A stretch of DNA of 64,000 nucleotides from a phage: NCBI GenBank assembly GCA_017686895.1, contig GCA_017686895.1_4521.1; one strand, written 5' to 3'. The notes beneath the pieces were generated by a model, which was given only the letters and a program-made list of their open reading frames with translations, searched no databases and was not told where the DNA came from. A program made the position numbers and the translations under genes. The stretch's first letter is position 1. Each line of letters opens with the position of its first letter. Below are positions 43,649-54,554 of this stretch, one piece after another.

Positions 43649-46360
43649 ATGAAAGAATTTTACTTAACGGTTGAACAGATTGGTGATTCAATTTTTGAAC
43701 GTTACATCGATTCTAATGGCCGTGAACGTACTCGTGAAGTAGAATATAAACCATCACTGTTTGCTCATTGTCCAGAAAGTCAGGCTACGAAATATTTCGA
43801 TATCTACGGTAAGCCGTGTACTCGTAAGTTGTTCGCTAATATGCGTGATGCCTCCCAATGGATTAAACGCATGGAAGATATCGGACTTGAAGCACTTGGC
43901 ATGGACGATTTCAAATTGGCGTATTTGTCTGACACTTATAACTATGAAATCAAATACGACCATACAAAAATTCGTGTGGCTAACTTCGACATCGAAGTAA
44001 CATCTCCGGATGGGTTCCCTGAGCCGTCACAAGCAAAACATCCAATTGATGCTATCACCCATTATGACTCAATTGATGACAGGTTCTACGTATTTGATCT
44101 ATTGAATTCTCCATATGGTAATGTAGAAGAATGGTCTATTGAAATCGCTGCTAAGCTTCAAGAACAAGGTGGTGATGAAGTTCCATCTGAAATTATCGAT
44201 AAAATCATTTATATGCCATTCGATAATGAAAAAGAATTGTTGATGGAATATCTCAACTTCTGGCAACAGAAAACTCCTGTCATTTTGACTGGATGGAACG
44301 TTGAGTCATTTGATATTCCATATGTGTATAACCGAATCAAGAATATTTTTGGCGAATCTACTGCGAAACGTTTATCACCACATCGTAAAACTCGTGTTAA
44401 AGTTATCGAAAACATGTATGGTTCTCGTGAAATCATTACATTGTTCGGTATCTCTGTTCTTGATTATATCGACCTTTACAAAAAATTCTCTTTCACAAAC
44501 CAACCGTCGTATTCTCTGGATTACATTTCAGAATTTGAATTGAATGTCGGTAAACTGAAATATGACGGTCCTATTTCTAAACTTCGTGAAAGTAATCACC
44601 AACGATATATTTCTTATAACATTATCGACGTGTATCGTGTATTGCAAATTGATGCTAAACGCCAGTTCATCAACTTGAGTTTGGACATGGGTTATTATGC
44701 TAAGATACAGATTCAATCTGTGTTTAGCCCAATTAAAACATGGGATGCTATTATTTTTAATAGCCTTAAAGAGCAGAACAAGGTGATTCCACAAGGTCGT
44801 TCTCACCCGGTTCAACCTTATCCTGGCGCTTTTGTTAAGGAACCTATTCCAAATCGATACAAATATGTAATGAGTTTCGACCTTACATCTCTGTATCCAA
44901 GTATTATTCGCCAAGTGAATATTAGCCCAGAAACAATAGCAGGAACGTTTAAAGTAGCTCCATTGCATGATTATATTAACGCAATCGCTGAACGTCCTTC
45001 AGATGTGTACAGTTGCTCTCCTAACGGCATGATGTATTATAAAGACCGTGACGGTGTAGTTCCAACCGAAATCACCAAGGTCTTTAATCAACGTAAAGAA
45101 CATAAAGGTTATATGCTTGCTGCTCAACGTAACGGTGAAATAATTAAAGAGGCATTGCATAATCCTAATCTTTCTGTTGATGAACCATTAGATGTTGATT
45201 ATCGTTTCGACTTCACTGACGAGATTAAAGAAAAGATTAAAAAGTTGTCTGCTAAATCTCTTAATGAAATGTTGTTTAGAGCTCAACGTACTGAAGTTGC
45301 AGGTATGACTGCCCAAATTAACCGTAAATTGCTCATCAACTCGCTTTATGGTGCACTTGGCAACGTTTGGTTCCGTTATTACGATTTGCGTAATGCTACT
45401 GCAATCACAACATTTGGTCAAATGGCTTTACAATGGATTGAACGTAAAGTTAATGAATATCTGAATGAAGTTTGTGGTACAGAAGGTGAAGCTTTCGTTC
45501 TTTATGGTGATACAGACTCTATTTACGTATCTGCTGATAAAATTATCGATAAGGTTGGTGAATCTAAATTCCGTGATACCAACCATTGGGTAGACTTCTT
45601 AGATAAGTTCGCACGTGAACGTATGGAACCAGCTATTGATAAAGGTTTCCGTGAAATGTGTGAATACATGAACAATAAACAACACTTAATGTTCATGGAC
45701 CGAGAAGCTATCGCTGGTCCTCCGCTTGGTTCTAAAGGTATTGGTGGATTCTGGACTGGTAAGAAACGTTATGCATTAAACGTGTGGGATATGGAAGGAA
45801 CTAGATACGCTGAGCCTAAACTCAAAATCATGGGTCTAGAGACTCAGAAATCTTCGACCCCTAAAGCAGTACAGAAAGCTCTTAAAGAATGTATTCGTCG
45901 TATGCTTCAAGAAGGTGAAGAATCATTACAAGAATATTTTAAAGAGTTTGAAAAAGAATTCCGTCAATTGAATTATATTAGCATCGCGTCGGTATCTTCT
46001 GCGAATAACATTGCTAAATATGATGTAGGTGGATTCCCTGGTCCTAAATGTCCGTTCCATATTCGTGGAATTCTGACATATAACCGAGCTATCAAAGGTA
46101 ATATTGATGCTCCACAAGTTGTAGAAGGTGAAAAAGTATATGTTCTGCCTTTACGTGAAGGAAACCCATTCGGTGATAAATGTATCGCATGGCCTTCTGG
46201 TACTGAAATCACAGATTTAATTAAAGACGACGTACTTCATTGGATGGACTACACTGTTCTCCTTGAGAAGACATTTATTAAACCACTTGAAGGATTCACA
46301 TCAGCAGCGAAACTCGATTACGAGAAGAAAGCATCTCTGTTCGATATGTTCGATTTTTGA
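43649..46360 (+). CDS. 43: DNA polymerase gp43 (family B, 3'-5' exonuclease)
   Basis: 903 aa; exo motifs FDIE and YNIIDV, polymerase motifs DxxSLYPS, KILINSLYG, YGDTDS. Confidence 0.97.
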   Translation: MKEFYLTVEQIGDSIFERYIDSNGRERTREVEYKPSLFAHCPESQATKYFDIYGKPCTRKLFANMRDASQWIKRMEDIGLEALGMDDFKLAYLSDTYNYEIKYDHTKIRVANFDIEVTSPDGFPEPSQAKHPIDAITHYDSIDDRFYVFDLLNSPYGNVEEWSIEIAAKLQEQGGDEVPSEIIDKIIYMPFDNEKELLMEYLNFWQQKTPVILTGWNVESFDIPYVYNRIKNIFGESTAKRLSPHRKTRVKVIENMYGSREIITLFGISVLDYIDLYKKFSFTNQPSYSLDYISEFELNVGKLKYDGPISKLRESNHQRYISYNIIDVYRVLQIDAKRQFINLSLDMGYYAKIQIQSVFSPIKTWDAIIFNSLKEQNKVIPQGRSHPVQPYPGAFVKEPIPNRYKYVMSFDLTSLYPSIIRQVNISPETIAGTFKVAPLHDYINAIAERPSDVYSCSPNGMMYYKDRDGVVPTEITKVFNQRKEHKGYMLAAQRNGEIIKEALHNPNLSVDEPLDVDYRFDFTDEIKEKIKKLSAKSLNEMLFRAQRTEVAGMTAQINRKLLINSLYGALGNVWFRYYDLRNATAITTFGQMALQWIERKVNEYLNEVCGTEGEAFVLYGDTDSIYVSADKIIDKVGESKFRDTNHWVDFLDKFARERMEPAIDKGFREMCEYMNNKQHLMFMDREAIAGPPLGSKGIGGFWTGKKRYALNVWDMEGTRYAEPKLKIMGLETQKSSTPKAVQKALKECIRRMLQEGEESLQEYFKEFEKEFRQLNYISIASVSSANNIAKYDVGGFPGPKCPFHIRGILTYNRAIKGNIDAPQVVEGEKVYVLPLREGNPFGDKCIAWPSGTEITDLIKDDVLHWMDYTVLLEKTFIKPLEGFTSAAKLDYEKKASLFDMFDF

Positions 46361-46400
46361 TATAATACCATGGACGGTAAACTAATTAAATGAGAGAAAT

Positions 46401-47036
46401 ATGAAAACTACACCAATCACTATCGCTATTGACGCAATCGTAAAACAAGCTTCTTCTTTGGCTACTATGGCCAAAGTAATTAGTCAAAACCCTGCTCGTT
46501 ATAATGCTATTCTAGAAACTCTTCGACGCCCTGGACTGAGTAATTATGAAAGCCGAGTAATTATTACAGGTGTTGGTAAGAACGCTAATATCGCAACTAA
46601 AGCTTCCGAGACTTTTGCTTCACTAGGTATTCCTAGCATGTATTTGAACACCGGGCATTATTCTCATGGCGACGCAGGGTTTATTGCACCTAATGATGTA
46701 TTAGTTCACATCAGTCGTTCTGGTAAGACTGAAGAAATGATAGGTGTTGCTAAACATCTTCGTATGATTCGTCCTCAGGTTAAACAGATTCTGTTACATT
46801 GTAACCCTGACATTCCGCAAGAATACGAAGCTCTTTTTGATTATACGTTCTGTACAGGCATCGCGGTAGAGGTTGATGAGAATTCTCTGGCTCCGACCAT
46901 GTCCACTACATTGTTGTTAGCGCTTATCGATACGTTTGCTATCAACCTTTCGTCTGAACGTGGATTTACCTCTAATGACTTCCTTAAGTTCCACCCTGGT
47001 GGTGCACTAGGTGCCATGTTACGAGGCGAACAATGA
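46401..47036 (+). CDS. SIS-domain phosphosugar isomerase (KdsD/GutQ-like arabinose-5-phosphate isomerase without CBS domains)
   Basis: RVIITGVGKNANIATK, HISRSGKTEE and C-terminal FLKFHPGGALGAMLRG match the KdsD-type SIS domain as I recall it; 211 aa. Confidence 0.8.
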   Translation: MKTTPITIAIDAIVKQASSLATMAKVISQNPARYNAILETLRRPGLSNYESRVIITGVGKNANIATKASETFASLGIPSMYLNTGHYSHGDAGFIAPNDVLVHISRSGKTEEMIGVAKHLRMIRPQVKQILLHCNPDIPQEYEALFDYTFCTGIAVEVDENSLAPTMSTTLLLALIDTFAINLSSERGFTSNDFLKFHPGGALGAMLRGEQ

Positions 47037-47176
47037 AAGCAATAACAATAGGACTTTTACTATTGATGCTTGTCATGACTATCTACTGGAGCTTAACGGC
47101 TCCAGTAATGATTCCGACTCTTATAATCGGATGGATTATGATTGGACTACAAACAAAGTATGAATGCTTTAACTAG
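47033..47176 (+). CDS. small two-helix membrane protein (47 aa)
   Basis: MKAITIGLLLLMLVMTIYWSLTAPVMIPTLIIGWIMIGLQTKYECFN; ATGA overlap with SIS gene; hand-identified. Confidence 0.35.
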   Translation: MKAITIGLLLLMLVMTIYWSLTAPVMIPTLIIGWIMIGLQTKYECFN

Positions 47177-47189
47177 AATAGTGTACAAT
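47165..47189 (+). promoter_or_regulatory. candidate MotA-type middle promoter
   Basis: TGCTTTA box, 12 bp, TACAAT, about 28 bp upstream of ATG 47218. Confidence 0.45.
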
Positions 47190-47217
47190 ACACCTACTTA
47201 CCAATGAGGACCACAAC

Positions 47218-48903
47218 ATGAAAAAAGCTGTTATTCTTGGTGCTGGACTGGCAACTCGTTTGTATCCAATAACGCACCATATTCCTAAGGTGCTTGTTAA
47301 CTATAAACAAGACACTATTCTGAGCAATTTGTATACAATTTATTCTGACCTTGGTGCAGATGAAATTATTGTAGTAGTTCATTCAAAATTTGTTGAAACT
47401 GTTCGAGCTTATTGTGAGCAAGAAGGGTTCAATGTGACTATTCGTACAGTTGATGAAGCGTATGGTTCTGCTTATGCTCTTGCTAAATTATACAAAGATT
47501 TAGATGGCCATAACGTAATTGTTAACTGGTGTGATATTATTCCTGATTTTGGTTCATGGTCTTGGAATGTTAACGCAATCTATGTTAAGGGTGATGAATG
47601 TCGATATAATTTCGATGGTGAAAATATCACTAACGTAGGTTCAACAGGCGGTAATGTTGTAGGAATTTATCAGTTCAAAGACTGGGAATTCTATATGGGT
47701 TCTACTGATGAGGAAATTCATGAATACTGCAAAGGGCGTGATTTCGTAGAATTCCTTTACGGCAGTGCATTCAATAAATCAGAGCTTATGAATCTAATTG
47801 ATTTAGGTGATATGCCTAAACTTGAAAAAGCTCATGAAGTTCGTGAACTTAATCGTAGTTTTAATGCAGTTGAAATTGGTGAAGAAACTGTAACTAAATT
47901 CGCATTAACCGAACAGGGACGAGCTCTTCAGAAAGATGAGATTTCGTGGTATCTTAAAGTGAAATCAGATTCAGTTCCTCAGTTAGTTTCTGTTAATGAA
48001 AATAACTTTGAAATGGAACGCATTAAAGGTAAGCCAGCATTTGAATATATTAAATCCAAATCAAGTCTTGCTCGTCCACAAATTGTTGATGCAATTTTAG
48101 ATGCACTGAAATTCAGCACAGACACTTATTTTGTAAGTCCTGAAACTGTTCGTCGTGATTTCACTAAAGAATTCTATACGAAAGTTATTGATCGTTGTGA
48201 AAGCATTCAACCATTGATTGATTCATTTGGTAAAATCACACATGTGAACTACACTAAGATTGGACGTCTGAAGCCAATGCTGAAACAAGCTTTAGAACAC
48301 CTTATTCGTTATCATAACCGTTCTCAGGGACAGTACTCTGTTATTCATGGTGACCCGAACTTCAGTAATACTATGATTACTGATAACGGCGAAGTCAAGT
48401 TTATCGACCCTCGTGGATATTTTGGCGAAACCAAGATTTACGGGCCAAAATTGTACGATGAAGCTAAAGTGCTTTATGCTGTTTCAGGTTATGATGAATT
48501 CAATGCTAATCCGACCTGGGGACAGTTTACTATTGATGAAACAACTTGTAATGTGACTATTAACATCAATCCATTAATTTACAAATATGGAAAGATGAGT
48601 TCGTTTAACGAGTATCATCATTTGGCGGTGGCAATTATCTGGATTGCATTAGGTGGTTATTTCAAGAATAATCCACTTAAAGCGGTAGCCGCATATTATA
48701 AAGGTATGGAACTTCTGACTAAGCAATTACGCAACATGGGCCGTGTACTTCAAGACGGCTCTATTAGTTATGACGTAGCAGAACCTGTAACGGCTACTCT
48801 GATTACAAAAAATCCTGGTAAATGGGTACTAACTGATAAAGAAACTGGTGTTTCCTATCGTCCAATCGGTGGCGATATCACTCATCAATGGGAACGAATC
48901 TAA
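47218..48903 (+). CDS. bifunctional sugar-phosphate nucleotidyltransferase / APH-ChoK-fold kinase
   Basis: N-terminal AVILGAGLATRLYPITHHIPKVLV (sugar nucleotidyltransferase G-x-G-x-R-L-x-P-x-T motif); C-terminal VIHGDPNFSNTMI and FIDPRGYFG (aminoglycoside/choline kinase Brenner and DxE-like motifs). Confidence 0.75.
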   Translation: MKKAVILGAGLATRLYPITHHIPKVLVNYKQDTILSNLYTIYSDLGADEIIVVVHSKFVETVRAYCEQEGFNVTIRTVDEAYGSAYALAKLYKDLDGHNVIVNWCDIIPDFGSWSWNVNAIYVKGDECRYNFDGENITNVGSTGGNVVGIYQFKDWEFYMGSTDEEIHEYCKGRDFVEFLYGSAFNKSELMNLIDLGDMPKLEKAHEVRELNRSFNAVEIGEETVTKFALTEQGRALQKDEISWYLKVKSDSVPQLVSVNENNFEMERIKGKPAFEYIKSKSSLARPQIVDAILDALKFSTDTYFVSPETVRRDFTKEFYTKVIDRCESIQPLIDSFGKITHVNYTKIGRLKPMLKQALEHLIRYHNRSQGQYSVIHGDPNFSNTMITDNGEVKFIDPRGYFGETKIYGPKLYDEAKVLYAVSGYDEFNANPTWGQFTIDETTCNVTININPLIYKYGKMSSFNEYHHLAVAIIWIALGGYFKNNPLKAVAAYYKGMELLTKQLRNMGRVLQDGSISYDVAEPVTATLITKNPGKWVLTDKETGVSYRPIGGDITHQWERI

Positions 48904-49289
48904 TGCACCGTGTAGAAAACATGCTTAATCTTTGTTTTGATGTCGATGATTGTATAACAGAGTGGAATAACAATCGTGATTACGTGAACTTCAAACCAGA
49001 CGTCGAAATGGTGTCTGCCATTAATGCCCTGTATGATGCAGGGCATACCATAACGCTTTACACTGCTCGTGGTATGAAGTCAGTAGGTCCTGGTCGTATA
49101 GCAATTGACATTCTCCCAAGTCTGATTCAGAACTTGGCAAACATTGGCTTGAAGTACCATAATTTGCTAACACATAAACCAGTATATGATTGGATTATCG
49201 ACGACAAAGCTATGCGTCCTGACGAATTCAAAGCTCTTATGAATAAAGGCGAATTCGAAACATTTAAATCATATAAACCGAATCTATAA
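48903..49289 (+). CDS. HAD-superfamily phosphatase
   Basis: Motif I FDVDDCIT (DxDxT), motif III-like K-x-DWIIDDK; TAATG overlap with upstream gene. Confidence 0.65.
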   Translation: MHRVENMLNLCFDVDDCITEWNNNRDYVNFKPDVEMVSAINALYDAGHTITLYTARGMKSVGPGRIAIDILPSLIQNLANIGLKYHNLLTHKPVYDWIIDDKAMRPDEFKALMNKGEFETFKSYKPNL

Positions 49290-49335
49290 TAATTTAAGTA
49301 AGACCTGCAAAAACCATCGCATCAATTAACGCGAG

Positions 49336-50505
49336 ATGCAAAAAATGAATACTTTTAAAATCGGAACGAATTTTGATTTAGCTCTTCTTGATAAAATCGT
49401 AGAGCTCAATAAAACCTATCCTAATAGCTTGATAAACGAAGTATATGGCTCTACAAGAGAAATGGCTTTTGTAGCAGCCAGACCTGATTTTAGGCTTCCT
49501 GACGTTGACAAAAAGATGTTAGAAGATTACGTTAAACGTTGTAACGAATTAGGTATTTGCTTTAACTATACACTCAACACGATAAATCCTGGTTCAAAAA
49601 GAGAACTAGTTGAGTGGAAGAAGAAAGCTATTCAGGATTATGTTCAGTATCTTTGGTCAATAGGCGTATGGCGTATTACTATCGCTAACCCTGTTGTTAT
49701 GGAAATTGTTCGTGAAGTCAATAAAGATATTGAGATTGAAGTTTCAACAATTCTACATGTCGATGCGGTAACTCAAATCAAATACTTACATGACCAATAT
49801 AACATCAAAAAGGTCTGTTGCGGAATTCATAAGAACCGTTCAGTTTCTTTCCTGAAGCGTGCAGCAGAGTTTTGCAATAAGAACAATATAATATTTGAAG
49901 TTCTTGTAAATGAGTTCTGTTCTAATGCTGGTAAAGGGTATACAACACATTGTAGTTATCGTGACTCTTGCTATATTTTCCATAGTACTGATGTTACAGC
50001 TGATGATGCTAAATCCTTAAATGGATATCCAATGCAACACTGCATTAAAGCTCGTGATACAGACCCATTTAACTGGTTGAGAACTCGTTTTGTTCGTCCT
50101 CAAGATTTGAAACTTTATAATGATATTGGTATCACTCAATTCAAAGTTTCAGGACGTACAGGTAGCACAGACTACATTTTGAAAGTTCTTGAAGCATACG
50201 CTTCTGAAAAGTTTGAAGGTAATTTGTTAGAACTGTGGAAGCCTTTAGAGACTATTTTCACTCTTGAAAATGAGACTGAGTTTTCACATACAGTAAATAT
50301 TGAAACCTCTTTGTTAGATGGCTTTTTAGAAAAAAGGTGGTTCAGACATCCAGATTTTGATTGTGCTAATGAAATCTGTGGGTCAACGTGTACATATTGT
50401 GAAAGGTATTATAAACGTCAATTATCTAAAAACGGGTTAGCAGAAAACTCCATATCTATTATTGATATAACTAACTCTGATGACGCTTTGAGGTACCCGG
50501 AATGA
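49336..50505 (+). CDS. Cys-rich protein with peptidase-U32-like features (tentative)
   Basis: EVLVNEFCSNAGKGYTTHCSYRDSC resembles the U32 signature region; many cysteines including C-terminal CGSTCTYC (Cx3Cx2C); family not confirmed. Confidence 0.3.
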   Translation: MQKMNTFKIGTNFDLALLDKIVELNKTYPNSLINEVYGSTREMAFVAARPDFRLPDVDKKMLEDYVKRCNELGICFNYTLNTINPGSKRELVEWKKKAIQDYVQYLWSIGVWRITIANPVVMEIVREVNKDIEIEVSTILHVDAVTQIKYLHDQYNIKKVCCGIHKNRSVSFLKRAAEFCNKNNIIFEVLVNEFCSNAGKGYTTHCSYRDSCYIFHSTDVTADDAKSLNGYPMQHCIKARDTDPFNWLRTRFVRPQDLKLYNDIGITQFKVSGRTGSTDYILKVLEAYASEKFEGNLLELWKPLETIFTLENETEFSHTVNIETSLLDGFLEKRWFRHPDFDCANEICGSTCTYCERYYKRQLSKNGLAENSISIIDITNSDDALRYPE

Positions 50506-50741
50506 TTTCTAGAAAAAGTTTTAATTATAAACTTAACGAAGAGATTTTGACTATGAAACTGAACACTAACGAACAAATTCTTAAAAAGGCCCTTATGGGC
50601 CTGTTTGAAACCAAAGCGGCTAAAGTGATTAAAGAACCTGTTCAATTGGAATACTACACTGATGCATTCCTTCATAGTGTTCTTGGAAGTATAGATTCTG
50701 AAGCTTTACGTTATATCAACATTGTCAAGAAATTCAAATAA
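50502..50741 (+). CDS. hypothetical protein
   Basis: 79-aa ORF, ATGA overlap. Confidence 0.4.
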   Translation: MISRKSFNYKLNEEILTMKLNTNEQILKKALMGLFETKAAKVIKEPVQLEYYTDAFLHSVLGSIDSEALRYINIVKKFK

Positions 50742-50764
50742 GCTTTATGAATTGAGTATATAAT
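50742..50764 (+). promoter_or_regulatory. candidate middle promoter (approximate coordinates)
   Basis: GCTTTA box, 11 bp, TATAAT, about 20 bp upstream of ATG 50784. Confidence 0.4.
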
Positions 50765-50783
50765 AAATTGTATTGAGGTAAAT

Positions 50784-51500
50784 ATGGGAAAACATAACAC
50801 AATGAAATATATCAAAGCCGCAGATTTTCAAACCGCATTTAAAGCAGTCAATCGTGAAATTTTAGAAAACCCCGAATTCGTAACTGATTCTCGTATTGGA
50901 CGTTGTAATGAAATTGGGTCTATGACAGTAGTTGTTGACACTCCATCATCATTCAAAATGACCGACCCACGTATTAACCGCATCTCTTATGAATATGCCG
51001 AAGACTTCTGGAAGTTTATGATTTCTGGTGGTACCAACGCAGAAGAAGCGTTTAAGGCATATCCTAATGTCGCTAAATTTATTTCTAAACCAAAATCAGA
51101 TGTTTTGCCGGCGAACTTCAACACTTTCTATGGTCCTCGCATTGCGGCCCAATTACCAACTCTTCTAAAAGAACTTAAAGAAAAACCTAACTCTCGAAGA
51201 GTTGTGTTCCAAATTCTAGAAAGTTCTGATCAGGCTTTGCTTGATTCGGACGAAACACTTGAATATCCATGTACTGACTCAGTAACTTATTATATTCGTG
51301 ATGGTAAGCTTTATACCCACTGTCATATGCGTTCTCAGAACTGTGCTGTTGTTATGCAGTTGGATTTTTATCTCCAAGGAAAATTACTTCATTATATCGC
51401 TAACGAATGCGGTGTAGAAGTTGGTGATTATACTCATACCATGGTAAGTGCCCATGTGTTTGAACGTGATTTTGATTATGTTAAAGGATTCCTTGACTAA
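50784..51500 (+). CDS. 42: thymidylate-synthase-fold pyrimidine hydroxymethylase (dCMP hydroxymethylase-like, divergent)
   Basis: PNSRRVVFQI, catalytic-Cys region YPCTDSVTYYIRDGKLYTHCHMRSQN and VSAHVFERDF align to the PDSRRGIMIY / MCTNTVQYLIRD..NMRSND / GSLHVYSRHF blocks of T4 gp42 as I recall them. Confidence 0.65.
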   Translation: MGKHNTMKYIKAADFQTAFKAVNREILENPEFVTDSRIGRCNEIGSMTVVVDTPSSFKMTDPRINRISYEYAEDFWKFMISGGTNAEEAFKAYPNVAKFISKPKSDVLPANFNTFYGPRIAAQLPTLLKELKEKPNSRRVVFQILESSDQALLDSDETLEYPCTDSVTYYIRDGKLYTHCHMRSQNCAVVMQLDFYLQGKLLHYIANECGVEVGDYTHTMVSAHVFERDFDYVKGFLD

Positions 51501-52399
51501 TGGCTATTTTCCGCGTACCAATCTTGAGTATGCGGTCTTATGAAACTGGACAGTATGCTATCCTTAAGGATGGCAACTTCCAACTTCATTTGCACCGTGC
51601 TAATCCAGGTGATGTGATTACATATCCACGTAATGCATCTGATATTAAAGAATGCGAACGTCTTTTCCCAGAATTTAAGTTTGTTCCATTATGGTATAAA
51701 GATAACGCGTATAACACTCGTAAATATTTCTGGTCTGAAAATGAATTTGTGGTTGATTCATTAATTGCTTATTATGATTGTGATTTTCTAATCACAGATA
51801 TCACCGGATATGACGGCGCTTTTGATGTGGAATTCAATTTCAATATCACTGCAGACCCTAATAAACCACGTTTTTATATTGACGAATTCTTAAAAACTGA
51901 TATGTTGTCGGTTAATCGTTCACTTCAAACTACTGTGTTGAATGAACGTCAAAAAGAAGTGCTGGTTAACGCAGGTGCAGATGGTAATAAGATTATCGTA
52001 ACGCAGAAAGTTATACGTCCTTCCATCATGCAGCGTCTTGTAGGTGATTTGGCTCCTATTCATCTAGATGGTATTTTTCATCCATTTCGAATTAGTGACC
52101 CGTGCTATCGTTTTGAACAAGTGGTTGAATGTGCAATTCAATTAGGCCAACCGCTTTATATAACCGATCCAAATAATAGCTTCGACAGAAATAAGTATCC
52201 TGAAGAAGCATTGATTCGAATTTTTAAACCAACTAAAACTGAGTACTATCAAATTCTTAAAGGACGTCCGAAGATTCAATATTTCGAAAATCCTGAAGAA
52301 GTATTCCATCCAGGTCTTGGTGAGTTCATCTACTTTAATGCTTTAATTTCTTCGCCGTATAATATACCTAAATATGAAGATGTCGTAATCGAGGAATAA
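51500..52399 (+). CDS. hypothetical protein at the beta-gt position
   Basis: 299-aa ORF with no recognised motif; TAATG overlap with hydroxymethylase; occupies the slot of T4 beta-glucosyltransferase. Confidence 0.3.
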   Translation: MAIFRVPILSMRSYETGQYAILKDGNFQLHLHRANPGDVITYPRNASDIKECERLFPEFKFVPLWYKDNAYNTRKYFWSENEFVVDSLIAYYDCDFLITDITGYDGAFDVEFNFNITADPNKPRFYIDEFLKTDMLSVNRSLQTTVLNERQKEVLVNAGADGNKIIVTQKVIRPSIMQRLVGDLAPIHLDGIFHPFRISDPCYRFEQVVECAIQLGQPLYITDPNNSFDRNKYPEEALIRIFKPTKTEYYQILKGRPKIQYFENPEEVFHPGLGEFIYFNALISSPYNIPKYEDVVIEE

Positions 52400-52400
52400 A

Positions 52401-52949
52401 ATGGCTAAAATTATTTTAGTAGATGGCCCGGATAATGCTGGTAAAACAACTTTCATTAATGACATAATGGAAATTAGTGAAAGATATGTAAAGATTGATT
52501 TCCCTAAACGAACAGTTGATGGACGTTTCGATGTTAAGTCTCGAAATGAAGTTGGCTGTTTCGAAACTATGTTGAATTATTTAGACCCTACTAAGATTTA
52601 TCTATTAGACCGTGGATATATTAGTAACTGGGTTTATGGACGTATTCGACAAGATGCGGACTCGGTTCTTGACGTTTATGAACAGGATTATGTTCGTCTT
52701 TGCCAAAACCATGATGTGTTCACAATTATTTTAACACGTAACGAAATGACTGAAAGTTTTGAAGACGACCTTATTACTTTGTCTTCATTCGGTTTTAATA
52801 CAGTAATTTCACATTTTGAAGAGTTTGCAATTCATAACGAAATCCAAACGTATCAATTACTTAATCATGATGGTGCTAACAAAGTTATAGGATTTAATGC
52901 AAGCGAACGTAATAATTTGATTACAGAAATCATCAAATGGGCTCGTTAA
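52401..52949 (+). CDS. thymidylate-kinase-like P-loop nucleotide kinase
   Basis: Walker A ILVDGPDNAGKTT and DRGYISNWVYG (Tmk DR-Y-like motif). Confidence 0.6.
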   Translation: MAKIILVDGPDNAGKTTFINDIMEISERYVKIDFPKRTVDGRFDVKSRNEVGCFETMLNYLDPTKIYLLDRGYISNWVYGRIRQDADSVLDVYEQDYVRLCQNHDVFTIILTRNEMTESFEDDLITLSSFGFNTVISHFEEFAIHNEIQTYQLLNHDGANKVIGFNASERNNLITEIIKWAR

Positions 52950-53047
52950 GAGCCATTTAAAGTTTTAAATGCTGTATAACCCTTAGTATATAATCATCTT
53001 ATCTTTTAAACATGAGTAAAATATAATGATGCCTATGGAAAAATACA

Positions 53048-54220
53048 ATGTCTGATTTAAAATCTCGTCTGATTAAAGCTTCTACTTCTAAAATGACTGC
53101 AGACTTGACTAAGTCTAAGCTGTTTAATAATCGTGATGAAGTCCCTACTCGTATTCCAATGTTGAATATTGCACTAGGTGGTGCACTGAATGCAGGGTTG
53201 CAATCAGGCTTAACTATTTTTGCTGCTCCTTCTAAACATTTTAAAACGTTGTTTGGGCTGACCATGGTTGCAGCATATATGAAGAAATATAAAGATGCAA
53301 TCTGTTTGTTTTATGACTCAGAATTCGGTGCTTCAGAATCTTACTTCCGTTCGATGGGTGTTGATTTAGACCGTGTAGTTCATACTCCGATTCAATCCGT
53401 CGAACAACTTAAAGTTGATATGACTAATCAGCTTGACGCGATTGAACGCGGCGATAAAGTTATTATCTTTATCGATTCAATCGGTAATACTGCATCTAAG
53501 AAAGAAACCGAAGATGCGTTGAACGAGAAAGTTGTAGGTGATATGTCTCGTGCTAAGGCACTTAAATCTCTTTTCCGTATTGTGACTCCTTATCTGACTA
53601 TTAAAGATATTCCGTGTGTTGCAATTAACCATACTGCAATGGAAATTGGCGGATTGTATCCTAAAGAGATTATGGGCGGTGGTACAGGTATTCTTTATTC
53701 CGCCAACACGGTATTTTTTATCTCTAAACGTCAGGTTAAAGAAGGTACAGAATTGACCGGTTATGACTTCACGTTGAAAGCAGAAAAATCTCGTACAGTT
53801 AAAGAGAAATCTACTTTCCCGATCACGGTTAATTTCGACGGTGGTATCGACCCATTCAGTGGCTTGTTAGAAATGGCAACTGAAATCGGTTTTGTGGTTA
53901 AGCCTAAAGCTGGTTGGTATGCTCGCGAATTCCTTGACGAAGAAACAGGTGAAATGATTCGTGAAGAAAAATCATGGCGTGCTAAAGCTACTGATTGTGT
54001 AGAATTCTGGGGACCTTTGTTTAAACATAAGCCTTTCCGTGACGCAATTGAAACTAAATATAAACTAGGTGCTATCTCTTCTATTAAAGAAGTTGATGAC
54101 GCTGTTAACGACCTTATTAATTGCAAAGCAACAACTAAAGTTCCGGTTAAAACTTCTAATGCTCCGTCTGCAGCAGATATAGAAAACGACCTTGACGAAA
54201 TGGAAGATTTCGATGAATAA
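53048..54220 (+). CDS. uvsX: RecA-like recombinase UvsX
   Basis: MSDLKSRLIKASTSKMTADLTKSKLFNN ... Walker A and L1/L2 regions; 390 aa, colinear with T4 UvsX. Confidence 0.97.
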   Translation: MSDLKSRLIKASTSKMTADLTKSKLFNNRDEVPTRIPMLNIALGGALNAGLQSGLTIFAAPSKHFKTLFGLTMVAAYMKKYKDAICLFYDSEFGASESYFRSMGVDLDRVVHTPIQSVEQLKVDMTNQLDAIERGDKVIIFIDSIGNTASKKETEDALNEKVVGDMSRAKALKSLFRIVTPYLTIKDIPCVAINHTAMEIGGLYPKEIMGGGTGILYSANTVFFISKRQVKEGTELTGYDFTLKAEKSRTVKEKSTFPITVNFDGGIDPFSGLLEMATEIGFVVKPKAGWYAREFLDEETGEMIREEKSWRAKATDCVEFWGPLFKHKPFRDAIETKYKLGAISSIKEVDDAVNDLINCKATTKVPVKTSNAPSAADIENDLDEMEDFDE

Positions 54221-54554
54221 TCTCGATGATTTAAATCTAGAAATCGTTGATGAATCCCCTTCTTCGGAAGGGGAGGACATTCGCAAAGAACGAGTGTTTA
54301 ATGAATCTCTTAAAATTATCCGTTCAGCAATGGAAAATGTCATTCAAGAGATTCTGATTACACTTGAAGACGGTTCCCATCATATAGTCTATATTACAAA
54401 ACTAGACTGGGTTGATGGTAAAATCGTAATGGACTTTGCAGTTCTTGACCAGGACAGAAAAGCAGAACTTGCACCACACGTTGAAAAATGTGTTACAATG
54501 CAAGTACAACAAGCTTTTAATGAACGAACCAAGAAAAAATTTAAATTCTTTTAA
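54213..54554 (+). CDS. 40: head vertex assembly chaperone gp40 (by synteny)
   Basis: ATG 54213 overlapping uvsX end; lies between uvsX and 41 as in T4. Confidence 0.7.
   Translation: MNNLDDLNLEIVDESPSSEGEDIRKERVFNESLKIIRSAMENVIQEILITLEDGSHHIVYITKLDWVDGKIVMDFAVLDQDRKAELAPHVEKCVTMQVQQAFNERTKKKFKFF

Follow-up and report, generated by a model that had tools for sequence, protein, structure and literature searches.

The DNA of phage RB69 and of Acinetobacter phage DLP3 contains mono- and poly-arabinosylated 5-hydroxycytosine (5hoC), in which the sugar is ether-linked to C5 of the base (PMC13326640), and mono- and di-arabinosyl-5hoC have been described in RB69 and its relatives (PMC13326640, PMC13390438). 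The hydroxyl group is made on the mononucleotide by a ThyA homologue (RB69 gp48, DLP3 gp80) that uses flavin and O2, and the base-proximal sugar is reported to be alpha-linked (PMC13326640). Independent groups have proposed that this first arabinose is put on the modified cytosine by a gp46:47-type enzyme (PMC13326640, PMC13390438), for which the name and role of 'arabinosyltransferase 1' have been put forward in RB69 (Lee et al., NAR 2026, PMC13326640; preprint June 2025). Phage Thanatos, which is mono-arabinosylated, has a glycosyltransferase (GT) of this type as its only one (PMC13326640, PMC13390438). Here, we analyse the corresponding gene in a 64,000-nucleotide stretch of phage DNA (contig GCA_017686895.1_4521.1 of GenBank assembly GCA_017686895.1, hereafter the window), which is an open reading frame (ORF) at 51500..52399 on the + strand with a 299-aa product orthologous to RB69 gp46:47, DLP3 gp79 and Thanatos TH1_063. 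This protein is probably a compact, sequence-orphan enzyme of GT-B fold that puts the first (alpha-linked) arabinofuranose on 5hoC.

The window is that of a Mosigvirus (RB69-like), its 8.3-kb stretch 46000..54300 being 97.2% identical to RB69. At a nucleotide identity of at least 95%, the gene matches 154 phage records in Mosigvirus (including RB69, HY126, JS09, phiC120 and Bas47/AlbertHofmann), and the ORF is intact in 153 of them. In the RB69 record (NC_004928, 24597-25497), the gene is split into RB69ORF047c and RB69ORF046c by an extra T at gene position 545, which has been ascribed to a sequencing error (PMC13326640). The window protein is 99.3% identical to that of RB69, 47.5% to that of Thanatos (L002:5995-6897, where annotation confirms TH1_063 as the orthologue) and 45.9% to that of DLP3, with a coverage of 98-100% in each case. 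No substantive difference sets it apart from these three proteins, apart from the ORF being intact in the window and split in the RB69 record, and the synteny of the gp46:47 family is there too, with a ThyA homologue of the D169N type immediately upstream and a thymidylate kinase (TMPK)-like kinase downstream. The family is small and has clear limits: relatives at the protein level were found in 349-369 phage records, a search of 1.84 billion proteins yielded 229 cluster representatives at E<=1e-3, and 34 residues are invariant within it. A sequence-only reading of the window had presented the protein as a candidate novel pentosyltransferase acting on 5-hydroxymethylcytosine (hmC), chiefly because of its position. 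The enzyme is not new, since it has been described before, as RB69 gp46:47, the 'arabinosyltransferase 1' of PMC13326640. The idea of a pentosyltransferase has been strengthened by the predicted GT-B fold, the adjacent cluster for an activated pentose and the independent proposals mentioned above, while hmC as the acceptor has to be given up together with the novelty.

The position itself deserves attention. The ORF listing of the window gives 51500..52399 as a single ORF starting with ATG, and the junction with the upstream gene reads ...GAC TAA TGG CT..., so that the TAA of the ThyA homologue (51498-51500) and the ATG of the GT gene (51500-51502) have an A in common. Both the ORF and this overlap are thus as the sequence-only reading had described them. 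The stop/start overlap (TAATG, 51498..51502, + strand) is kept as TAATG in Thanatos and the marine contig L007 and as ATGA in contig L005 and Rhizobium phage AF3, and the two genes are probably translationally coupled, to judge from the junction. One base past the TAA of the ORF, at 52401, begins a 182-aa gene, which is followed by uvsX, gene 40 and gene 41. The order in T4 is 43 - imm.1 - imm - 42 - beta-gt - segA - uvsX - 40 - 41 and that in the window is ThyA homologue - 299-aa ORF - 182-aa kinase - uvsX - 40 - 41; therefore, the ORF does occupy the slot of T4 beta-gt (CAZy GT63), as had been noticed at the outset. The two proteins also share a GT-B architecture, which is predicted here, and the presumed use of a uridine diphosphate (UDP)-sugar to modify a C5-substituted cytosine. 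What they do not share is sequence homology, in keeping with the earlier remark that there is no similarity to T4 beta-gt: BLASTP gave an E value of 3.7, and hhalign of the family profile against T4 beta-gt a probability of 0.4%. The partner genes differ as well, that of the window being of an RSQN type instead of a hydroxymethylase supplying hmC.

That no motif can be recognised was also borne out, since Pfam, NCBIfam and PDB sequence searches were all empty of real matches. The 299-aa protein has no Pfam match at E<=0.1, and hence none to Glycos_transf_1, Glyco_trans_4 or NTP_transferase, and no NCBIfam match. Its only match among PHROGs is PHROG 3891, of 'unknown function'. A phmmer search against the PDB matched no chain, which also means that the family has no solved structure there, and all that the family profile returned from the PDB was three unrelated matches (E 0.34-0.98) that we judged to be due to chance. 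One apparent bridge to beta-gt, Serratia phage Muldoon gp038, was considered and rejected, because gp038 is a degenerate relative of the family that lies beside genuine beta-gt and beta-alpha-gt genes. This 308-aa protein (L010:4001-4927) is a distant relative (Foldseek E 3.5e-17, 18% identity), is encoded directly after a gene 42 of the RSND type and before the two genuine genes, and has none of the family motifs SMRS, KDGN, FPFRISD, TDPN and HPG. In this hmC phage, it has the look of a remnant that has decayed or been repurposed.

Where sequence is silent, structure prediction is more telling. Using an alignment of 40 relatives from a search of 5.8 billion proteins, AlphaFold2 gave a model with a mean predicted local distance difference test (pLDDT) of 94.5 and a predicted template modelling score (pTM) of 0.89, which consists of two Rossmann-like beta/alpha/beta domains with a cleft between them. 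The protein is thus predicted to have a GT-B fold. A fold unrelated to any transferase, the outcome that the sequence-only reading had set down as counting against it, is not what was found. Structural neighbours include sucrose-phosphate synthase (6kih), BshA (6n1x), PimA (2gej), MshA (3c4q) and T4 alpha-GT (1y6f), all at 7-13% identity, and T4 beta-gt is not among the listed structural matches. Foldseek against the viral structure library BFVD returned the protein's own family first and viral glycosyltransferases next. The family is nevertheless unlike these retaining GT4 enzymes and T4 alpha-GT in that it has no Pfam match and does not conserve the first Glu of the EX7E motif, and typical GT4 enzymes are 40-100 residues longer. 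The window protein does display E267-x7-E275, but position 267 varies in the family (E/K/F/T), which leaves the second acidic residue as the only conserved one, and H270 stands in place of the usual Gly. With an alpha-anomeric donor, the alpha linkage of the base-proximal sugar and the GT4-like fold would together point to a retaining mechanism.

Residues that are invariant in the family comprise the S10-M-R-S13 loop, K23-D-G-N26, D100-I-T-G-Y104, R197, T222-D-P-N225, K246 and H270-P-G272, to which a conserved acidic residue at 275 can be added. The majority of these are found past the ends of strands or where helices start. In the model, R197, K246, H270-P-G272 and the acidic residue at 275 are placed after strands of the C-terminal domain or at helix starts, and they are candidates for binding the diphosphate and ribose of the donor. 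The S10-M-R-S13 loop and D100 could similarly lie on the acceptor side.

Since the lowest E values of Foldseek against the PDB are for UDP-GlcNAc 2-epimerases (2.8e-6, compared with 6.2e-6 for MshA, which is of the same superfamily), and since no GT motif is detectable in the sequence, the protein might instead be a GT-B-like non-transferase acting on a nucleotide sugar, akin to these epimerases, or might even serve the ThyA homologue or the kinase as a partner without catalysis of its own. This we consider highly improbable. The protein does not combine a match to the Pfam Epimerase_2 sequence model with a best structural match to such enzymes, the reported route to UDP-arabinofuranose (UDP-Araf) requires no epimerase, and the family is also found in Rhizobium phages, where 5hoC carries hexoses. 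As for a non-catalytic role, invariance at 34 positions speaks for catalysis, and the loss of motifs in the Muldoon relative shows how relaxed constraint looks in this family.

The nature of the acceptor base follows from the gene upstream, which had initially been taken for 'the hydroxymethylase'. That assignment is wrong. The gene (50784..51500, + strand) encodes a 238-aa ThyA homologue (Pfam Thymidylat_synt) that is a flavin/O2-dependent synthase of 5-hydroxy-deoxycytidine monophosphate (5-hydroxy-dCMP), not a dCMP hydroxymethylase. It matches the phage HY126 structures in the PDB (9iqc/9ir2) with an E value of 2.9e-160 and only 5 differences in 238 aligned residues, and in an alignment it has RSQN where T4 gp42 has RSND. 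This D169N signature has been taken as diagnostic of 5-hydroxy-dCMP synthases, and the activity of the RB69 orthologue, gp48, is marked 'confirmed experimentally' (PMC13326640). Moreover, the Asn (RSxN) is present in every ThyA homologue that we found beside an intact family member, namely in Thanatos, L004, L005, L007 and Rhizobium phage AF3. From the RSxN signature, the near-identity to the HY126 protein and the activity of RB69 gp48, it follows that the acceptor is 5hoC and not hmC, that is, the sugar is ether-linked to 5-hydroxycytosine.

A pentosyltransferase that glycosylates hmC in DNA, as the sequence-only reading had it, could draw on the T4 beta-gt position and on a 2018 account of RB69 DNA in which the base was named arabinosyl-hmC (PMC6024577). 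It is now extremely unlikely. Nuclear magnetic resonance and mass spectrometry have established the ether link to 5-hydroxycytosine and the earlier hmC assignment has been termed erroneous (PMC13326640, PMC13390438), which is in line with the RSQN signature, the near-identity to HY126, the product of RB69 gp48 and the uniform RSxN, as opposed to RSND, of the ThyA homologues beside intact family members.

The supply of the donor is no less well represented in the window, all genes being on the + strand. The cluster includes a 211-aa SIS-domain protein (46401..47036; Pfam SIS, PHROG 5670), the orthologue of RB69p055, which by RB69 annotation and PMC13326640 is an arabinose-5-phosphate isomerase converting ribulose-5-phosphate into arabinose-5-phosphate. 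It continues with a 561-aa bifunctional sugar kinase/UDP-arabinose pyrophosphorylase (47218..48903; orthologue of RB69 gp52:53 and HY126 AfhE), which has an N-terminal NTP_transferase domain and a C-terminal APH-like kinase domain, and with a 133-aa HAD-type sugar-phosphate phosphatase (48888..49289; orthologue of RB69p051 and HY126 AfhF) that matches an NCBIfam capsule-biosynthesis phosphatase (E 4e-13) and PHROG 1238 and is covered in PMC13326640. Activities of HY126 AfhE and AfhF, including UDP-arabinose pyrophosphorylase for AfhE, are summarised at second hand in PMC13326640. Downstream of the GT gene, the 182-aa protein (52401..52949) is a TMPK-like nucleotide kinase orthologous to RB69p045 (PHROG 761, E 2e-45; its translation has a recognisable P-loop), which presumably acts on the modified dCMP; the phage also keeps a separate deoxynucleoside monophosphate (dNMP) kinase of the T4 gp1 type (RB69p159). 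Between the phosphatase and the ThyA homologue lie genes for a 389-aa protein of the Peptidase_U32 family (49336..50505; Pfam PF01136, E 7e-11, with a weak match to UbiU) and for a conserved 79-aa protein (50502..50741; RB69ORF049c by RB69 annotation, PHROG 8601, E 2e-50).

Put together, these genes outline a pathway in five steps. (i) The ThyA homologue hydroxylates dCMP to 5-hydroxy-dCMP, as has been shown for the RB69 and HY126 orthologues. (ii) The TMPK-like kinase, with cellular kinases, would then raise this nucleotide to the triphosphate used in replication. (iii) The isomerase, the kinase/pyrophosphorylase and the HAD phosphatase would convert ribulose-5-phosphate into UDP-D-arabinofuranose, for which the activities of HY126 AfhE and AfhF have been shown according to the second-hand account just mentioned. 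(iv) The GT would hold UDP-Araf in its C-terminal Rossmann-like domain and 5-hydroxycytosine in its N-terminal domain, the acceptor most probably being, by analogy with T4 alpha- and beta-GT, 5hoC in newly replicated DNA, and would place the first arabinose on the 5-OH to give base-proximal, alpha-linked 5-O-arabinosyl-cytosine. (v) An unrelated GT4-like enzyme, the orthologue of RB69 ORF003c, would add the next arabinose, as the literature suggests. Comparison with RB69 indicates that ORF003c is not in the window. This second arabinosyltransferase, encoded between rIIA and gene 39 in RB69, differs from the 299-aa family in having an orthologue of solved structure (the HY126 glycosyltransferase, PDB 9iqz and 9ir0), and it is unrelated in sequence, hhalign of the family profile against it giving a probability of 0.35%. 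Mapping motifs through a GT4 profile built on ORF003c foundered on its homologue search, which returned 5 clusters only, too few for the purpose.

A number of points count against a transferase acting in this way and keep our confidence from being higher. A sequence-level tie to any GT family is absent from the Pfam, PDB and hhalign searches. The family is acidic, with a median isoelectric point (pI) of 5.1 against 9.05 for T4 beta-GT. Structural support for the residue roles proposed above is marginal, invariant residues being only weakly enriched just past strand ends (18 of 34, against a background of 36%, P 0.025). In the literature found, which does not extend to He et al. 2026 (HY126) or Mahler et al. 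2025 (the 'Aat' transferases), transferase activity is demonstrated for no family member. Given UDP-Araf or UDP-arabinopyranose (UDP-Arap) as the donor, DLP3 gp79 by itself failed to arabinosylate 5hoC-DNA, a result given as 'data not shown' (PMC13326640). Thanatos TH1_063 is reported not to have transferred xylose from UDP-xylose to unmodified DNA, dCMP, deoxycytidine triphosphate (dCTP) or cytosine, which is uninformative because the acceptors lacked a 5-OH (PMC12838424). The same paper (Brandt et al., AEM 2025, PMC12838424) reports that TH1_063 forms UDP-xylose from UTP and xylose-1-phosphate.

Taken at face value, this last result would make the 299-aa protein a UDP-pentose pyrophosphorylase that produces the activated sugar in place of transferring it, since the UDP-xylose was detected by liquid chromatography-tandem mass spectrometry with purified TH1_063, an orthologue that occupies the same position after TH1_062. 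We think this very unlikely. The predicted fold is GT-B and not that of a nucleotidyltransferase, no NTP_transferase signature is present, and that domain is found in the neighbouring 561-aa protein, whose HY126 orthologue AfhE is the one with reported UDP-arabinose pyrophosphorylase activity in the summary cited above. A host contaminant of the GalU type is not excluded in the TH1_063 assay, as far as it is described, and Thanatos-like phages would be left without any transferase. The claim also conflicts with the presence in Thanatos itself of a nucleotidyltransferase domain in TH1_060, the orthologue of the 561-aa protein, as it does with the GT-B fold.

Comparative evidence comes from the distribution of the gene and its neighbours. 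Beyond the window, the ThyA homologue (RSxN), the GT and the TMPK-like kinase occur as a trio in (i) Thanatos (L002), (ii) a 355-kb contig with one gene intervening (L004), (iii) a 122-kb contig with a Flavodoxin_2 gene alongside (L005), (iv) a marine T4-like contig that has SIS and NTP-transferase genes too (L007) and (v) Rhizobium phage AF3 of the Pootjesviridae (L009:3141-5600), where a ThyA homologue with MRSQN is followed by a family member of 343 aa, the two genes overlapping as ATGA, and by a P-loop kinase-like protein of 213 aa. The kinase adjoins the GT in L004, L005, L007, L008 and AF3, and the downstream genes of the trio loci belong to PHROG 761, like the kinase of the window. The trio with overlapping stop and start is therefore conserved from T4-like phages to jumbo-phage contigs and Pootjesviridae of Rhizobium. 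A Flavodoxin_2 gene, of the NAD(P)H-dependent FMN reductase type, beside or near the ThyA homologue (L005:6739-7293 and L004:1-523) is in keeping with the reported need of 5-hydroxy-dCMP synthases for flavin; none was seen in the cluster of the window.

The same partners are also found fused. Seven proteins (P0231, P0220, P0239, P0242, P0253, P0261 and P0218) have a GT followed by a C-terminal kinase domain, another (P0236) has the kinase first, and the kinase domains of these fusions fall in PHROG 761. In a further group (P0139, P0150, P0153, P0164, P0166, P0228 and P0201), an N-terminal KdsC/HAD-like phosphatase domain precedes the GT, an assignment that comes from one weak Pfam match (E 0.004, below the cut-off) and visible DxDG...GDD motifs. 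A phmmer search with the kinase and HAD proteins of the window gave no direct match to the fusion proteins, which leaves PHROG 761 as the only link for the kinase, and P0231 and P0139 are on contigs too short for useful context. Both the trio and the fusions link the GT to synthesis of the modified nucleotide and of the sugar donor. Outside arabinosylated phages, Rhizobium phage RL38J1 has galactosyl- and glucosyl-5hoC, and its 'galactosyltransferase 1' (RL38J1_215) is encoded between the 5-hydroxy-dCMP synthase RL38J1_216 and the nucleotide kinase RL38J1_214 (PMC13326640). The gene order in AF3 is the same as that reported for RL38J1. Together, these findings suggest that the family recognises a 5-hydroxycytosine acceptor while the sugar varies, and the trio may mark glycosyl-5hoC whatever the sugar.

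This close association with a nucleotide kinase raises the question of when the first sugar is added. It could be put on the free nucleotide (5-hydroxy-dCMP, -dCDP or -dCTP) before replication, with the TMPK-like kinase phosphorylating the glycosylated nucleotide and the phage polymerase incorporating it. In favour of such a route are the GT-kinase fusions in both domain orders with kinase domains in PHROG 761, the ThyA homologue - GT - kinase order with overlapping stop and start kept across phage families, the presence of the gp1-type dNMP kinase besides the trio kinase, the acidic pI of the family and the inactivity of DLP3 gp79 on 5hoC-DNA, the authors of that assay stating that they cannot tell the mononucleotide from DNA as the site of the first sugar (PMC13326640). 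However, the inactivity of DLP3 gp79 comes from a single assay given as 'data not shown', and in DLP3 it is on DNA that the third arabinose is attached (PMC13326640). Fusions and conserved gene order prove that the proteins work in one pathway but do not tell in which sequence they act. To our knowledge, every characterised sugar modification of phage DNA is post-replicative, as with T4 alpha- and beta-GT, which weighs against addition to the nucleotide. On balance, we regard it as unlikely, though it merits being kept in mind, and favour a first arabinose placed on 5hoC in DNA by the GT.

A side observation concerns the 389-aa U32 protein, which is far better conserved than its neighbours: it is 79% identical to Thanatos TH1_065 (L002:7462-8598) and 82% to Thanatos-2 by tblastn, against 47.5% for the GT. 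It is present in 222 phage records, none of them from Acinetobacter phages, and is missing from all 57 Acinetobacter phage records with the GT. The host genera listed for U32-bearing phages are all, as far as is known, facultative anaerobes. Proteins of the U32 family such as RlhA, TrhP and UbiU/V support O2-independent hydroxylation (5-hydroxycytidine, ho5C, in rRNA, 5-hydroxyuridine, ho5U, in tRNA and ubiquinone, respectively), UbiU acting in anaerobic ubiquinone biosynthesis. By analogy, the phage protein may provide an O2-independent route to 5-hydroxycytosine. Orthologues with 47-50% identity (L013:11024-12124 and L014:8179-9276) are encoded at a distance of two or more genes from a GT-kinase fusion, and on these contigs no ThyA homologue was found within 12-15 kb. 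In the published account, the gene is listed only as 'sugar or heterocycle reductase' (PMC13326640).

The conserved trio of ThyA homologue, GT and kinase with its overlapping stop and start, together with the GT-kinase and HAD-GT fusions, adds to the published picture of this modification. In many T4-like phages, some of them candidates for use in therapy, arabinosyl-5-hydroxycytosine gives protection against restriction enzymes, CRISPR-Cas and defences based on glycosylases, and the enzyme that adds the first sugar performs the committed step. The residual interest of this enzyme resides in (i) whether its acceptor is DNA or a nucleotide, (ii) the anomer of its donor and (iii) the role of the linked kinase. 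Addition at the nucleotide level, if true, would be the first known case in which a phage DNA base receives its sugar hypermodification before replication, and would account for 5hoC-DNA not serving as a substrate in vitro. As for uncultured phages, the trio is a practical genomic marker of glycosylated 5-hydroxycytosine, whatever the sugar.

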